Assembly: GCA_951406725.2 (NCBI GenBank)
Contig: OX597842.1
Location: 32,736,001 to 32,800,000, forward strand
Direction: 5' to 3'
From: Octopus vulgaris
Taxonomy: Eukaryota
Length of the DNA: 64,000 bases
Below the pieces are notes generated by a model that was not told the DNA's origin, did no database searches, and saw nothing but the letters and a program-made list of their open reading frames with translations. Below are positions 5,050 to 59,188 of this stretch, in pieces (positions within the stretch are counted from its first letter, which is position 1; each line of letters starts with the position of its first letter). The position numbers and the translations under genes were made by a program.

Positions 5050-5159
5050 AGAGAGAGAGATTAGGAAGAAGCAGAAAAAGAGGGCTGAATTGGTGTCACC
5101 GTTGGTCGTTGAAAGCCAGCCATCCGTCTCAAATAAAATCTGACCGTTTCATATCCTGA

Positions 5160-5265
5160 ACTGCTCATGCGCAGAACGCACAATCCTACAAATATCCACG
5201 TACTCTCGGTCCCACGTGACTTAAGTAAGAACTCTGACCAATAGCGGCCACTTATATTTATTACT
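5160..5265 (+). promoter_or_regulatory. Candidate promoter cassette (NRF1-like, E-box, CCAAT, AT-rich TATA-like)
   Basis: GCTCATGCGCA 5163-5173, CACGTGAC 5213-5220, CCAAT 5238-5242, TTATATTTA 5252-5260, in promoter-like order; motif evidence only. Confidence 0.4.
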
Positions 5266-7184
5266 TCACCCTCTCCAGACCCCCAACACTCTTGAAATTT
5301 TCCATTTGTAAGTCTCACATTGGGACTCCAACCGACCGTGAAAAAATATATTTCTGGGAACTTCGAAGACACGGAACGCGTTTGGATTTAAAAACTGACT
5401 GTCACGTTATGCATGCAACTGTGAAAAAAAAAGGGGGAAAAACTAAGTATTTTTGTAAATCTCAAGCTATGGGCTGTTCAGATTTTTAAAATCGCTGATG
5501 CCATGTTCAGTAAACCGTGAAAAGTATATATATATTTTTTGCAAGCCTTTTCGTATCCTGAATTTTTTTAGTTTTAAAATGACCGTCCCTTTAAAAAAAA
5601 TATAAAATATATAGACATTTTTACAAATTTTCCCACCCATGTTTTTTCCCTTTTTTTTACATTTAGAACAGATCATTCAACCAACCATGAAAATATATTT
5701 TTGCAAACCCCCTCAAATCCCGGAATATTTTAGTCTTAAAATGACCGTCTCTGAGTAACTAACTATAAAATATATATATAGATATTTTTACAAATTTTCC
5801 CACCCGTATTTTTTCCCTTTTTTTTTTACATTTAGAATAAGATCATTGATTTATTCAACCAACCATGAAAATATATTTTTGCAAACCCCCTCAAATCCCG
5901 GAATATTTTAGTCTTAAAATGACCGTCTCTTTGAGTAACTAACCAAAAAAAATTAAGATATATAGATATTTTTACAAATTTTCCCACCCGTATTTTTTCC
6001 CTTTTTTTTTTTACATTTAGAACAGATCTTTGTTTTATTCAACCAGCCATGAAAATATATTTTTGCAAACCCCTCAAATCCCGGTCTTAAAATGACCGTC
6101 CCTTTGCGAATTAACTGAATAAAAATATATATAGATATTTTTACAAATTTTACAACCCGTGTTTTTTTCGTTTTTTTTTACATTGAATAGGTCATAGTTT
6201 TATTCAACCAACCGTGAAAAAATATTTTTGAAACCCCCTCAAATCCTAGAATATTTTAGTTTTAAAATGACCGTTCCTTTAAGCAATCAACCGTAAAAGA
6301 GATGTAGATATTTCTTTTAATTTTACGGCCCGTAGCTTTTTCAGCCTTGGAACTGACCATCGGTTCATTCAACAAACCGTGGGGAAAAAAATTTGTAAAC
6401 CTCAAAATAATGGCTGTTAAGATTTTTAAGATTGTCAATATGTTCAATCAACCGTGAAAACTATATTAATATTTTTGCATGCCCTTCAAGTCCTGGAATT
6501 TTTTAGTCTTAAAATGACCGTGCAGTCAACCGTAAAAAAATATACATATTTTTACATAAGTTTTCAGCCCATACCTATTTTAGATTTAGAAAAACTATCA
6601 TTTTATTCAACGAACTTTATAAAAAGTTTTTGTAATCCTTAAAATATAAGTTGTCTAGCTGTGTAAAATCACCGATTTGATATTCAACCAAGCGTGAACA
6701 AATTTATTAGTATCTCTGTAATCCGGCCAAGCCCTGTAAAATTCAGATTTCAAACTGACCATCCTTTTGTTCAATCAACCTTCAAAATATTCTCACATAT
6801 CTTCCTCCCTTAGCTTTTTTTCAGCTGTAAAAAATCACCGGACCTTCGGTTATGGGTTTACATTTTGTAAACCGCTGATTTGTTTATTCAAGTAACCGTG
6901 AAAAATATTTATAAATATTTCTGCAATCCGGTCGAAATCTAGAAGTTTAGATTACAAACTAACAACACCTGTTTTCAATCAAACGTGAAAAAAAAATTAT
7001 TTATTTTTTTATTTTATCTAGTTTCAGCTCACGAGCTGTGACCATGCTGGGGCACCGCCATTTATATATTGTTATATATTTCCAACCTGTAACTTTTTTA
7101 GATTTAAAACTAAAACCATTATTTTATCGAATTAACCGTGAAAAAATATAAATAGTTTTGTACATATGTATATGTATATATGCG

Positions 7185-7443
7185 CAGTAATGCCTCGACT
7201 ATCGCGGGTGCTACGTTCCAACCGTTCTCGCGATAGGTGAAAATCCGCGAAGTAGAAACGGTACTGTATGTGTATATATGCTTTTTTATATTTTTATAAT
7301 TTGTTTATATTTATTTTATTATAAATGGAAAACAATACCACGGAGGAATCGATGTAAGATTAAATAATATACCGCGACTGGTGAACCGCGATAGGTGAAC
7401 CGCGATAGGTGAACCGCGATAGGTGAATGGCGAGGGATTACTG
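7185..7443. mobile_element. Tigger/pogo-type (Tc1/mariner superfamily) MITE
   Basis: TIRs CAGTAATGCCTCG ... CGAGGGATTACTG (12/13 complementary), TA on right flank, subterminal GAACCGCGATAGGT x3. Confidence 0.75.
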
Positions 7444-7466
7444 TATATGTATGTATTTGTGTGTAT

Positions 7467-7494
<28 letters not shown>

Positions 7495-7503
<9 letters not shown>

Positions 7504-7700
7504 TGTCCCCCACCATCGCTTGACAACCGATGTTGGTGTGTTTATATCTCCATTGGTTAGCGGTTCGGTAAAAGATATTGATAGAATAACTACTGGGCTT
7601 ACAAAGAATATGACCCTGGGTCGATTTCTGCGACTAAATAAAAAAAACCCTTTAAGGCGGTGCTCTAGCATGACCGGAGTAAAATGACTGAAATAAGAAA
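7495..7700 (+). mobile_element. SINE family A, 3' half
   Basis: GCTTGACAACCGATGTTGGTGTG...AAGGCGGTGCTCTAGCATGACC...AATGACTGAAA. Confidence 0.85.
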
Positions 7701-8787
7701 TAGAATTAAATACTAACTGTCCAAAAATATAGTTTTGCAAACTTTAAGCTGTAAATAATGCCAAAGTGTTTGCGGATCCCAACCCGCATCTCGTGGAATT
7801 CCTGGAATGACAATGGCCAAACTGGTGTTTACCCAACCGTGAAAAAATATTTTTTCGCAATATTCCATCCAGCCCGTCCATTTCGGATATAGTTTTCGGA
7901 TTTTAAAATGACCAGCTTGTTATTCAATCAACCGTGAAGAAATCTAAATATTTCTACAATCCATATAGCAGTGCGATTGGTGTTAGTGGTGGGTGTTAAA
8001 ACGGCCAGCCTTTTATCCAGCCATGCCCAACCCATAGATTGTTTCAATTTTAGAAATCAAACTCCTGATGGTCAGCAAACCATGAAAAATATAAATAAAT
8101 ATGAAATCCTGAAACTGAAGGTTGTTCTAGTTTAAGAATGGCCATTCCTAACTGGTCAATCAACCGTGAAAAATTTTAAATAATTCCGAAGTCCCCAGAG
8201 CATATCCCCGTTTCTATATAGATAATCATCCAGCCATGAAAATGTTTATAATATTTCTTAAATCCCCGAAACCCAGGGACTGCTGTGGTGTAAAAATGAC
8301 CGTCCCGATAACGAACCAAGCGTGAAAAATCTTAATTCTGAAATACTAAAACCTTGGGCCGTTTCGATCTTGAAATGACCATCCTGCTATCCAACGAACC
8401 ATGAAAAAAATAAATATATATATCTTGACACTACAAGCAAGCCACGGTCAGTTTTAATTTTTAAATTTGTCCATCTTTACATGCAGCCATCTGTGATAAA
8501 AACGAAATAGTTTTGACTCTCTCAATCGTAACAGAAATTTCGTTAGCGCCGACTTCAACTTGATTTAGCTTTCAGCTGTTGGTTCTTAGCTATTAGCTTT
8601 TAGCATTTAAGCTGCAGGTTTGTTTGGTCATTACGGCTTTCAGGACAAAAATGCCGAGTCGAGATAGTGTGGGTACGTGGTAAAGAGTTTGCTTCGGAAC
8701 CCTATATATTCTGGTTCAATTCCACTGCGGAGAACTTTGTTCAAGTCTCCTGTTCTATAGTCTCGGGCAGAGCATAGTTCTGTGACC

Positions 8788-14843: not shown

Positions 14844-14886
<43 letters not shown>

Positions 14887-14909
14887 AAGGATGAGGATAA
14901 ATTGAAAAA

Positions 14910-15200
14910 TAAATGAATAGCGGAGGTGACCGAGCGACATGCGAATAAACGGCAACAATTTTCTGCGGCAAACTTCGCCAGGAACGTCGCCATCTTAACA
15001 ACTGGAGACCGGTTTTTCTCGAAAGATCGCTATATTTCATCAGTTGATCTCAGCGCCACCTATACAGATATTTCACTAAAATCTAGACAGTGGATTTATC
15101 TTAATCAAACAATCTTCACCTTTTCGTTGACTTCTATTGTCCCGACCGGAAATATAGCCCGTGCTGGCTCGCAGTGAATAATTTTAACTTCGCCATTACT
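14910..15200. promoter_or_regulatory. CpG-containing island with YY1-like and CTCF-like motifs
   Basis: CGCCATCTT 14988-14996; CAGCGCCACCTA 15051-15062; CGCCATTA ~15191. Confidence 0.35.
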
Positions 15201-36691: not shown

Positions 36692-37438
36692 GTTCTCCGA
36701 AACGGTACTGACCCTAAATGCAGATTCTGCGACACATTTGACGAAACGATAGACCATCTCGTTTCGGGATGTCCTGTGCTGACACCAAACGAATACAAAA
36801 ATCGCCACGATAGGGTAGGACAGTATATACATTGGAAGATATGTAAACACTACAAATCCGACACTCCTGCTAACTGGTATGAACACCATCCTCAGCCAGT
36901 TGTTGAAGGTAAAGATGTCACCATCCTCTGGGATTTTCCAGTCAACACTGACAGAACGATCAAGGCTAATCGACCAGACATAATTGTTAAAGACAGGGAA
37001 GAAAATACCTGCAGACTAATAGAAGTAAGCGTCCCCACTGATAAAAATGTATCTGTCAAGGAATTTGACAAACTTAGTAAATATAAGGACCTGGAAATCG
37101 AAATACAGAGGATGTGGAATCTTAAAACAAAAACTGTTCCTGTTATTGTAGGTGCCCTAGGTATGATAAAAAAGGGATGTCAGAAACACCTAGACAATAT
37201 CCCTGGAAAACCATGTCTCAAGGAAATCCAAAAGATTTTGCTAACAAGTACTGCCCACATCCTTAGAAAAACCCTATCAATGTAAATGTCTGTGTTTGCA
37301 TTACATGGAGATATATCTCTACTTCCCCTCCCCAAGCTTTCAGCTATATTTCAACAACTCTTAACCTTCACTTGCCCTAGGGCGCTGGGTGTGCCCCAGC
37401 AGGTGATTGCATCAAACATGCAGATAAAATGTAAATGA
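36691..37438 (+). mobile_element. 5'-truncated R4/Dong-clade non-LTR retrotransposon: CCHC zinc knuckle, restriction-like endonuclease, 3' UTR (ORF stop at 37285)
   Basis: CRFC..ETIDHLVSGC..YKNRHDRV..ILWD..NRPDIIVKD..LIEVSVP..KLSKYKDL..VIVGALG motifs; frame open; (TAA)n on both sides. Confidence 0.92.
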
Positions 37439-37443
37439 CAATG

Positions 37444-37488
<45 letters not shown>

Positions 37489-37511
37489 TTGATAATAATA
37501 ATAATAATAAT

Positions 37512-37745
37512 GTTTTATTTATTGGCCACAAGGGCCGAACACAAAACACATAGAGACAGTACAACACAAGGAACGAGAGGAGTTTAATACAAAGTCGTGT
37601 AAGAAAAATAGAGTTAACAATAACAAGAATAAAATTAATAAAATTACCCCCTAATAGGGAGGAGTTTATCTCAGGGACAACCGAGGAAACCCCACACATC
37701 CTACTGATTCCAACCACCAGGTGTACCTCAACAGGTGCCCCTTTC
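37512..37745 (-). mobile_element. Probable 3' end of another retroelement (unassigned)
   Basis: Minus strand ends ..GTGGCCAATAAATAAAAC into (TTA)n; family not recognised. Confidence 0.4.
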
Positions 37746-37769
37746 CTTCACAACTCCAGCGGTTCACGA

Positions 37770-38567
37770 GCGAATGTCCAGAGGCAGGAGTTTTAGCCTG
37801 GGTTTTCATACGCGTAGCTTTTTCTGTTCTTGTCTCCACTATGTCTAATTCTGGAATGTGTTGTATTCGGCATTCATTTAGATATTCCTTTGCCTGTTTT
37901 GTTACTGAGTATGATGCTTTCTTGTTTTTCAGATAGATGTCTACGCCGATTGTGGCAATCTTCATTGTTAATTCCTGGTGCAAAATTCCACCGTCACCCT
38001 CTTTTCTTGCCTGGTAAAGTCGTTCTATATCTGCCTTAGGGTGGTGCATTCTATGCATTGCCAACAATCTTCGTATTTTCTGTCAAGATTACATATTTCT
38101 GTAATTGACCAGTTAATGATATTGAAACTGTAGCTCACAACTTTTATGGCTAAAGTATTGATCGCTTCTATCCTGTTTCTTGCATTCAGCTCTGTCTTGA
38201 GTATTGCCCTTACCCTGCGATAACATTTTCTTCTGATCCTTTCCCTCAACACTGAATGCTTGATTCCGTCTCCTTCAAATACCCCTAGGTATTTGTAGCT
38301 CTCCGCTGATTCTAACTCCTTTATGGCATTCTGCTGGTCAATATTAACGTTAGATGTCTCTGTAATTTTTCCTTTCGTAAATGTAACTTTTGCACATTTA
38401 TCGAGGCCAAATTGCATTCTGATGTCATCACTTAATTGTTTAACAATTGTTAGTAAGTCCTGTAGTTGTTGGTCATTTTTTGCAAAGAGTTTTAAATCAT
38501 CCATATAAATGAGATGATTTAATTTTTATCAAACATTTTATAACCGTATTGTACATCATCGAGTAAC
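37770..38567 (-). pseudogene. R4/Dong-clade reverse transcriptase fragment, frameshifted
   Basis: HLIYMDDLKLFAK..MQFGLDKCA..YKYLG..ELNARNRIEAINTLAI..YSFNIINW..LDRK; frameshift to HHPKADIERLY.ARKEG.GG. Confidence 0.92.
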
Positions 38568-41114: not shown

Positions 41115-41712
41115 TATTTATTTATTGCCGACAGGGGGTTAAACATAGAGGGGACAGACAAGGACAGACAAAGGGATTAAGTCGATTATATCGACCCCAG
41201 TGCGTAACTGGTACTTAATTTATCGAACCCGAAAGGATGAAAGGCAAAGTCGACCTCGGCAGAATTTGAACTCAGAACGTGACGGCAGACGAAATACCTA
41301 TTTCTTTACTACCCACAAGGGGCTAAACACAGAAAGGACAAACAAGGACAGACAAACGGATTAAGTCGATTATATTGATCCCAGTGCGTAACTGATCCTT
41401 AATTTATCGACCCCGAAAGGATGAAAGACGAAGTCGACCTGGGTCGAATTTGAACTCAGAACGTAACGGCAGACGAAATGCCAGTTTCTTTACTACCAAC
41501 AAGGGGCTAAACACAGGGAGGACAATGAAGGACAGACAGACGGATTAGGTCGATTACATCGACACCAGTGCATAACTGGTACTTAATTTATCGAACCTCG
41601 AAAGAATGAAAGACGAAGTCGGGCTGGACGGAATTTGAACTCAGAACGTAACGGCAGACGAAATACGGCTACGCATTTCGCCCGGCGTGCTAACGATTCT
41701 GCCAGCTCACTG
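41115..41712 (-). mobile_element. SINE family B (Meta-type): one head plus three tandem 184-bp bodies
   Basis: GTCGATTA anchor at 41181, 41365, 41549; single A-box head at ~41670-41710. Confidence 0.9.
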
Positions 41713-57689: not shown

Positions 57690-58431
57690 TAGACAGAGAT
57701 AGATAGATAGATAGACAATTAAATGCAAGGAAAAAGAGAAAGAGAGTGGGAGAAAGAGACAAACAGAAGGCGAGGGAAAGAGAGAAAAAGAAGGAGAGAT
57801 AAGCAAATAGCTAGAGAGAGAGGGGGGGAGAGGGAGAAAGACAGACAGAGAGAAAGAGACAGAGAAAGGAACACAAGGCTTTGCTTGGCGAAATCAAATC
57901 GCGTAATTCTAAGACAGGGAGATAGAAAAAAAAATGTAGAAATACGATTTTAAGAAAAGCCAAAAATTTCTCAGCTAACGCCATTACAGCAAGTGTCAAT
58001 CCGCCCCTGCATTCCACTCCCCCGCCATCATCATCATCAACAGCAGAAGCAGCAGCCGCGGCAGTAGCACCTTCAGCTGAGATGCCACACTTAACGAACC
58101 ATTTTCTTTCTGACGGAGAGAAAGAATGTTTTCTGTGGAGAAGTTCGTGCCTCATCTCGAAGACACGTCACTAAAGGCTTGAGGATTTTCAAGTCCGCTT
58201 CTCCCCTCCGCCACCCGTCAAACAACAGCGCAAAAGACACATTAACTCGCCACGGAACGACAAGAACCGTCACCAAACGCGGCCGGCGCCGCCGCTTCCT
58301 CCACGCGGAGATGTCACCCAAACCATCACTCAAGATTAACAGGTCATACCATTAAGGTATCTTAACCATTAACCATCAGCGATGTTGTCTTGCCAGCGAC
58401 AGAACAAACGAAAGAGTCTTAGGAGCGATGC

Positions 58432-59072
58432 GGGAGACCTCAAACCGGTTCTTATCTTTGGGAAAGATAGCAGCTAAATCACCCTCAAATCACACCCTAC
58501 TCTCTTATTCATGTATTTACATATGTCGGACACCTCTACATGGTAGCTAGACCTGATAGAAATAGCAGCCAAATCTCCCTCAAATCACACCCTACTCTCT
58601 TATCTATGTATATATGTATGTATGAGCCAATGAGGGAGACCTCTACATGGTAGCTAGACCTGATAGAAATAGCAGCCAAAACTCCCTCAAATCACACCCT
58701 ACTCTCTTATCTATGTATATATGTATGTATGAGCCAATGAGGGAGACCTCTACATGGTAGCTAGACCTGGTAGAAATAGCAGCCAAATCTCCCTCAAATC
58801 ACACCCTATTCTCTTATGTATATATGTACGTATGAACCAAATGAGGGAGACCTCTACATGGTAGCTAGACCTTGTAGAAATAGCAGCCAAATCTCCCTCA
58901 AATCACACCCTACTCTCTTATCTATGTATATATGTATGTATGAGCCAATGAGGGAGACCTCTACATGAAAGCTAGACCTGGTAGAAATAGCAGCCAAATC
59001 TCCCTCAAAACACACCCTATTCTCTTATTTATATATGTATGTATGAGCCAATGAGGGAGACCTCTACATGGT
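58432..59072. repeat. Tandem array of a 103-107 bp unit, about six copies
   Basis: CTCTACAT anchor at 58534, 58641, 58748, 58852, 58959, 59062; unit contains AGAAATAGCAGCCAAATCTCCCTCAAATCACACCCTA. Confidence 0.95.
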
Positions 59073-59188
59073 CGCTTTATGTATATATGTATGTATGAGC
59101 TATTAGTTGGTTCTAGGTGTACATAAATACATACGTGTAAACACGTGTGCACAGACACACACACACATATATATATAGATATATACAT

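Follow-up and report, generated by a model that had tools for sequence, protein, structure and literature searches.

In the common octopus, Octopus vulgaris, an old tandem array of approximately 32 units lies downstream of the Pax6 gene at a distance of 515 kb. Each of its units carries three short boxes that have accumulated far fewer recent substitutions than expected, one of them matching the consensus of the Pax6 paired-domain site. The array lies in a 64,000-nucleotide stretch (here referred to as the window; C29:32,736,001-32,800,000 in assembly GCA_951406725.2) of contig 29, which is 34.56 Mb long in a 2.8-Gb genome of 227 contigs. Simple repeats make up about 48% of the region. The array probably binds Pax6 in some role, and we assign a probability of roughly 0.45 to the reading that it constitutes a long-range Pax6 autoregulatory element built from many sub-optimal Pax6 sites.

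Constrained boxes and a Pax6-type site

The array (5326..8500, recorded on the minus strand) is composed of units of about 85 bp, each containing one box A (minus strand), a putative Pax6 paired-domain-like site, one box B (ATTTTTGCAA-like, plus strand), and one box C (TTTAAAATGACC-like, plus strand). An initial annotation of the window, made from the letters alone, had described 30 to 35 units of this length from about 5334, which agrees well with the approximately 32 units found between 5326 and about 8500. It had further stated that the boxes are kept in each unit; degenerate boxes do occur throughout, but among the 32 first-box positions used here the exact first box was present in only 6 (19 within one mismatch), while TATTTTTGCAAA was exact in 3 of the 32 units and TTTTAG..TTAAAATGACC in 5. 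All 12 first-box positions that it quoted fall on a first box, but the exact motif stands at only 6 of them. A profile built from the array's own units yielded 28 matches with an E value below 0.001, which it must find by construction, all on the plus strand and within 5329-8498. The alignment of 28 units, which leaves out the insertion-broken units and the last partial unit, had a mean pairwise identity of 53%.

Column agreement in boxes A, B, and C amounted to 0.80, 0.76, and 0.74, compared with 0.72, 0.54, and 0.62 in the linkers. The linkers, which had been described as strongly differing, do show the lower agreement, but they can be aligned and are not unrelated to each other. Neutral evolution was simulated on the inferred unit tree under three models (plain indels; homopolymer slippage; slippage with CpG and GC excess), with 40 runs per model, matched to the mean conservation and run without gene conversion. 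None of the 120 simulations reached the observed column conservation in its smoothed spread (0.106 versus about 0.05), its autocorrelation (0.32 versus about 0.04), or its range. When the units were re-cut at another phase, the block pattern persisted, with a spread of 0.097 and an autocorrelation of 0.24.

Recent differences were obtained by comparing the window with two DNA runs, X2 and X3, which represent a second haplotype or species and were counted once because they belong to one study and carry nearly identical differences. Among the substitutions listed, the 28 that lie in units on single-copy contigs were used, and 6 of these fell within the 886 bp of boxes and 22 within the 895 bp of linkers. 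This avoidance of the boxes gave a p value of 0.0025 after adjustment for composition, 0.005 by rotation, 0.014 by random placement of events, and 0.029 when counted as 17 clustered events; three of the six box substitutions sit in one truncated unit. At the rate of the sole control stretch, in which 35 differences were listed over 1156 bp, 25.8 differences would be expected in the boxes against the 6 seen, and 26.8 in the linkers against 22. In each of the three boxes, the differences amounted to at most about one-fourth of the expectation (3 versus 10.9 for box A in this one comparison), and the constraint on boxes B and C equaled that on box A. The promoter-like end of the array was the least changed part, with 1 difference versus 8.4 expected at 5063-5327 and 2 versus 19 at 5063-5704. 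Judged by these counts, which come from a single comparison and a single control stretch, the boxes are under present-day constraint, as is the promoter-like end, and the linkers are near background. The earlier proposal of selection on short boxes instead of uniform decay is thus supported by both the simulations and the recent substitutions, and the sequence likewise supports viewing the array as a putative protein-binding platform.

The likeness of box A to a Pax6 site was recognized first, and the 20-bp paired-domain consensus P6CON, ANNTTCACGCWTSANTKMNY, was then taken from the literature (PMC2612750, PMC2041993). Read on the minus strand, the majority box A fits 13 of 16 informative consensus positions and four units fit 14, both halves of the 20-bp site being matched. 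CAACCG, for which a Myb-type core had been suggested, turned out to be the middle of this match. The TTTT run preceding CACG is also found in the P6B and P6CON probes (PMC7046147). A consensus scan revealed 12 minus-strand sites with at most 3 mismatches to P6CON between 5505 and 8173 (starts in plus-strand coordinates: 5505, 5675, 5853, 6202, 6281, 6442, 6520, 6682, 6769, 6973, 7922, and 8154), the best four of which, at 6442, 6682, 7922, and 8154, have 2 mismatches. Such sites occur at 3.8 per kb in the array and at 0.19 per kb in flanking non-repeat DNA, and about 20 sites lie within 4 to 5 mismatches over the 3.2 kb of array. With its 12 sites, compared with at most 6 elsewhere, the array is the densest P6CON-like cluster in 1.04 Mb; two other clusters near Pax6 consisted mostly of ATGC microsatellites and were discarded. 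Among 95 mid-period tandem units in the 1.04 Mb, such a site is carried by that of the array alone. Dinucleotide shuffles of the unit did as well as box A in 203 of 20,000 cases, and the mean mismatch over the 32 units, 4.97, was reached by none of 1000 column-shuffled motifs (best, 5.94). For boxes B and C, binding sites of Meis, Sox, Six, Maf, nuclear receptors, and C/EBP were considered and none was convincing, and the YY1 site once suggested for the units (AAAATGGCC/G) is exact in none of the 32.

The position of Pax6 was searched after the motif idea had formed. A paired-box search of the genome gave ten strong matches from seven loci, and the paired-box exon at C29:33,382,500-33,382,859 (minus strand) shares 113 of 120 aligned residues with human PAX6, scoring 250 bits against human PAX6 versus 211 against PAX5. 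The linker, three homeodomain pieces, and the last exon of Pax6 follow down to about 33,259,030. The array therefore lies on the same contig, 515 kb beyond the stop codon, on the downstream side, and 638 kb from the paired-box exon. A random place in the genome would be this near to Pax6 with a chance of 0.04% and to any of the seven Pax loci with a chance of 0.27%; we estimate about 1% to be the fairer figure because a wider list of eye genes would have impressed equally.

Anatomy and copy number of the array

The unit tree revealed a feature that had been overlooked in the initial annotation, namely, three monomer types that form an older trimer, with support values of 94, 97, and 72 or less. 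This trimeric higher-order repeat (types 1-2-3, about 240 bp, plus strand) was recognized from the tree and from 240-bp spacings at 6204..7160 and also at 5411-5676. A young amplification of a dimer of types 1 and 2 covers 5595..6274 (plus strand; period of about 184 bp, 3.9 copies, 83% matches) and corresponds to the younger dimer of about 180 bp noticed before. If the array evolved neutrally, its root-to-tip distance of about 0.3 would presumably translate into tens of millions of years at the octopus rate. The gap between box C and the box A that follows it is 21 bp in 17 of 28 units, but a fixed spacing was dismissed as a signal, being by our own estimate not clearly beyond a uniform indel rate. 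A coding repeat was rejected as well, as the units do not have lengths divisible by three and their boxes do not stay in frame, and no Pfam match was obtained in the three array and cassette frames scanned (5064-5387, 8262-8375, and 8464-8571). On inspection, a microexon array was also rejected, the donor-like GT being missing from units with CATG.

Later insertions of a miniature inverted-repeat transposable element (MITE) and of short interspersed nuclear elements (SINEs) had been proposed, and their high copy number in the DNA runs bears this out. The MITE-like insertion (7185..7443, no strand assigned) has terminal inverted repeats and is flanked by TA; a SINE lies 3′ of a TG microsatellite (about 7503..7700, plus strand) and has 58 to 71 local copies in 464 kb; and a short SINE fragment sits inside the array (7025..7060, both ends approximate, plus strand) in a region of high depth. 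Depth in the DNA runs exceeded 10^5 at 6914-7171, compared with 6 to 37 in single-copy parts, and outside the insertions and the dimer the array was at single-copy depth throughout. The contig over the dimer had a depth of 204 versus 27 to 37 in run X3 but 6.6 versus 6 to 10 in run X2, and since contig depth does not equal copy number, these values do not establish that the dimer varies. Among 24 runs that contain the sequence, none is recorded as RNA, which speaks neither for nor against expression. Run X1, presumed to be RNA, had two short contigs of low depth, one at 5840-5984 (collapsed dimer) and one at 8609-8700, and gave no contig on the unique parts of the control stretch, and a further run, X4, gave none on unique parts of the array or of the control; neither run was used.

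Elsewhere in the 464 kb the best match to the unit profile had an E value of 1.2, and no match reached an E value of 1 or less in the remainder of the 1.04 Mb or in another 200 kb beyond it. Three DNA searches returned the array locus only, although relatives under about 65% identity could be missed by them and a lack of matches does not prove rarity. The unit was not found at pattern matches elsewhere (18 of the 120 matches of one search were tested with the profile, plus two arrays): it was absent from the matches on contigs 22 and 9 and from those on contig 20, whose copies resemble paralogous exon-like sequence; two matches are mariner-like ends; and arrays on contigs 27 and 28 proved by profile to be unrelated young repeats. 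The single-locus status claimed earlier is thus upheld by the DNA searches, the pattern checks, and the depth. In these searches the array shows neither the many loci of a satellite family nor the terminal repeats and transposase that would mark a transposon-internal repeat, and 5061-7015 ranks as the fourth longest of 1297 stretches in the 464 kb that are free of microsatellites and dispersed repeats.

Several other repeats were noted in passing. The arrays at C27:12.087-12.090 Mb and C28:0.942 Mb are young and homogeneous, with 78-bp and 81-bp units, respectively, that contain TTTCACGG. The four diverged exon-like copies at C20:16.43-16.52 Mb, two of them inverted, suggest a small paralogue cluster, and at C4:136,075,700-136,076,500 several hundred bases around TA microsatellites form an almost perfect inverted duplication. 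Within the window, a 107-bp tandem repeat at 58467-59076 (5 copies, 92% matches) is one of a family represented by at least three other arrays within 240 kb; also frequent are a 153-bp repeat family and 184-bp tandem SINE arrays (41115-41666); and 36692-38525 holds what on inspection appear to be broken coding remnants of non-LTR (long terminal repeat) retrotransposons on both strands. A unique GC-rich stretch at 57866-58460 contains open reading frames on either strand, gave no match in Pfam, and is a candidate regulatory element or exon.

Promoter-like end and the surroundings of Pax6

Directly upstream of the array, the NRF1-like (5162-5173, 11 of 12 positions), CACGTG-containing USF-type E-box (5211-5220), CCAAT (5236-5244), and TATA-like (5252-5263) motifs of the initial annotation were all recovered in the order given there. 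Together they form a promoter-like cassette at 5162..5263, to which no strand was assigned. The first three motifs fall within 85 bp. Of the ten NRF1-like sites in 1.244 Mb, no other has an E-box as well as a CCAAT box at a distance of at most 100 bp. The order of the motifs fits a start on either strand, so that a transcript might either run through the array or head the opposite way, with the array then upstream of it. No coding exon was recognized near the cassette. At 14885-15050 of the window, the minus strand carries AAGATGGCG, which is YY1-like, together with an ATG in unique CpG-rich sequence, with no Pfam match and no strong donor seen; it is a possible start of an unrecognized transcript aimed at the array.

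On the other side of the array, at 394 kb, a plus-strand exon resembles the end of the PTB domain of ANKS1B (E value of 0.0003 against solved structures). In the approximately 910 kb between this exon and Pax6, a Pfam scan recognized no host gene; it covered 245 frames picked by eye or by a composition score from several thousand, and short exons are easily missed by it. The matches among the 245 frames were to reverse transcriptase, Pax6, and the weak PTB exon. The complete Pax6 gene, including its homeodomain exons, spans at least 124 kb (C29:33,259,030-33,382,859); PMC5333810 describes the Pax6 model of O. bimaculoides as lacking a homeodomain. The same source reports cuttlefish Pax6 expression in tissue surrounding the eye, the optic lobes, the brain, and the arms, and the squid Pax6 gene is placed centrally within a chromatin compartment (PMC10329180). 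The paired boxes found elsewhere include one at C16:26,634,139 that appears to be Pax1/9-like, on what would be the Z chromosome if contig numbering follows that of O. vulgaris chromosomes, and a divergent, apparently eyegone-like one at C9:115.82-115.84 Mb.

Candidate mechanism, competing explanations, and meaning

In the proposed Pax6 autoregulatory element, a unit with one paired-domain site and two other boxes would have been multiplied by tandem duplication into a homotypic cluster, whose many medium-affinity sites could give a cooperative, dose-sensitive read-out of the Pax6 level. Partner factors may occupy boxes B and C, and the NRF1/E-box/CCAAT end might give rise to a local transcript or hold the chromatin in an open state. 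By looping across more than 638 kb to the Pax6 promoter, the module would sustain or limit Pax6 expression and so feed the level of Pax6 back on its gene, in the manner of the SIMO and EE enhancers of vertebrates (PMC5137874). A more specific version, which we put forward only tentatively and hold to be on balance doubtful, is that of an octopod element in which the sites were multiplied about 30-fold tens of millions of years ago and in which copy number is still shifting, the repeat dosage tuning Pax6 feedback in the eye, brain, or arm.

Several observations weigh against the autoregulatory reading. The consensus position C9 is C in 2 of 32 units and G in 28; it is a high-information position, at which natural partner-dependent sites deviate (PMC4330359). 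Two more consensus positions fit only 11 and 5 of the 32 units, and just one of the five degenerate positions uses its permitted second base in excess. Of 86 windows of 20 columns, that of the site is the 16th most conserved, the leading ones reaching into the adjoining A/T run, and in the type-2 halves of the young dimer the Pax-like site is gone (8 to 11 mismatches). The motif was hand-picked, and the 1% shuffle value is uncorrected for the number of known motifs. Matches to the consensus failed to bind in vitro in 6 of 11 probes (PMC2612750) and at 11 of 27 sites (PMC2041993). As for the constraint, the best-window and conserved-column counts were matched by 8 and 59 of the 120 simulations, respectively, and a gamma shape of 6.4 indicates mild rate variation among columns. 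The 28 recent substitutions come from 40 of 93 rows of differences, after removal of 1 on the collapsed dimer contig, 4 outside units, and 7 in insertions, and the substitution at 8170 strikes an informative position in one of the four best sites. Finally, the end of the ANKS1B-like gene is nearer to the array than Pax6 is, and the Pfam scan found only one of three Pax6 exon frames, so its detection of genes between the two was weak.

In an explanation that we consider rather unlikely, the array is bound by Pax6 but regulates a local transcript from the cassette, running on the plus strand through the array or on the minus strand away from it, or else the ANKS1B-like gene. The cassette is rare and least changed, its motif types are typical of promoters and not of distal enhancers, and the ANKS1B-like exon is the closer of the two genes; however, the nearness of Pax6 would then be a coincidence of 0.04 to 0.3% unless the transcript belongs to the Pax6 landscape, the vicinity of the cassette contains no recognized coding exon, and the TATA-like and CCAAT motifs are just 7 bp apart, which is closer than usual. 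Alternatively, the boxes may be selected for another paired-domain protein or an unrelated factor, with the array silencing, insulating, or titrating protein in the Pax6 gene desert. Such a role would account for the fixed deviations from P6CON at three positions and for boxes B and C, which are as constrained as box A and have no match to the Pax6 consensus; six paired-box loci besides Pax6 are available among the seven, and Pax3 and Pax9 reportedly bind the mouse major satellite, which would be a precedent. We nevertheless regard it as unlikely, given that Pax6 is the nearest Pax gene and that the site starts with TTCACG, the form printed for Pax6 (PMC2612750, PMC7046147, PMC2041993), and not with the GTCACG of the Drosophila paired and CD19 sites (PMC2612750, PMC7046147).

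Recent substitutions that avoid the boxes, boxes that vary from unit to unit, unlike conversion tracts, and the fact that our searches found no dispersed copies, terminal repeats, or link to a transposase make it improbable that we are dealing with the neutral relic of a minisatellite or of a repeat from within a transposon, its boxes persisting through conversion and mutation bias and its Pax6 match and position due to chance; the rank of 5061-7015 among the repeat-free stretches speaks against this too. It is favored by the routine occurrence of tandem arrays of 50 to 200 bp here (95 in 1.04 Mb), by the omission of gene conversion from the simulations, by a 21-bp C-to-A spacing not clearly beyond the expectation for short segments, and by conserved boxes in diverged satellites, which have been proposed to promote rearrangement (PMC3694981). 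Very improbable, in our view, is a repeat-rich long noncoding RNA (lncRNA) whose boxes bind proteins at the RNA level. The initial annotation had drawn an analogy to XIST, RSX, and roX, in which promoter-like sequence is likewise followed by repeats, as in the octopus Zmast and Zfest (10.1101/2024.12.09.627507); the cassette directly 5′ of the array on the plus strand, the single locus, the constrained boxes, and the existence of sex-specific Z-linked lncRNAs in octopus (10.1101/2024.12.09.627507) fit it. The analogy found no support, since no Rfam family matched and folding of the plus strand gave no consensus pairs in 29 units, and the main box fits a domain that binds double-stranded DNA. 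Nor is there evidence of Z linkage: Zmast and Zfest are on chr16, the Z chromosome of O. vulgaris (10.1101/2024.12.09.627507), while the array is on contig 29 (the equivalence of contig and chromosome numbers being inferred), and the unit profile found nothing better than an E value of 5 in 30 kb of contig 16 around the published Zmast coordinates.

Among described systems, the proposed Pax6 element most invites comparison with SIMO, which lies 150 kb downstream of vertebrate Pax6 and holds an autoregulatory Pax6 site (PMC5137874). Like SIMO and EE, the array is noncoding, is located far downstream of Pax6 (515 kb), and combines a Pax6-type site with other constrained boxes. SIMO, in contrast, is a unique, ultraconserved sequence that contains a single autoregulatory site together with a cluster of Meis sites (TGACAG/A), whereas the array is a tandem repeat of about 32 units, and we claim no homology. 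Compared by eye, the majority box C, TGACC(G/A), does not match the Meis consensus TGACAG/A (PMC5137874). The array thus resembles the autoregulatory enhancers of Pax6, yet it cannot be classed among them, since it lacks the SIMO-type Meis sites and its binding of Pax6 and enhancer activity are putative. Pax6-bound enhancers, including the zebrafish hb9 enhancer, likewise carry homotypic and often sub-optimal paired-domain sites (PMC4538810, PMC3327876); mouse Pax6 chromatin immunoprecipitation peaks have at most 2 to 4 motifs (15 to 17% of peaks; PMC4538810), compared with 12 sites reached by tandem duplication in the array. The satellite DNAs of Meloidogyne share with it monomers that are 32 to 64% alike, short conserved motifs, and higher-order units, but they form multilocus libraries with a CENP-B-box-like motif, whereas the array is one 3.2-kb locus with a Pax6-like motif and a promoter-like cassette (PMC3694981).

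The multiplication of factor sites by repeats, and tandem repeats that act at long range, are familiar in outline: besides the reported binding of Pax3 and Pax9 to the mouse major satellite, PAX6 sites are reported to occur in human repetitive elements, and a distal enhancer of maize b1 is reportedly a tandem repeat. To our knowledge, none of these repeat-borne cases involves an array that is old, has a low copy number, and places the sites of a factor beside the gene for that same factor. In the literature searched on octopus and cephalopod Pax6 enhancers and tandem repeats, outside subscription papers and bioRxiv supplements, no account of the array was found.

Little is known of Pax6 regulation in cephalopods, though their camera eye is a textbook case of convergence. 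The array provides one defined 3.3-kb candidate with internal controls, namely, intact versus decayed units and C versus G at one position. If the autoregulatory reading is true, a developmental enhancer would have been assembled by tandem duplication and kept by selection where arrays are usually short-lived, and it would constitute a convergent, repeat-made counterpart of SIMO in an independently evolved camera eye.

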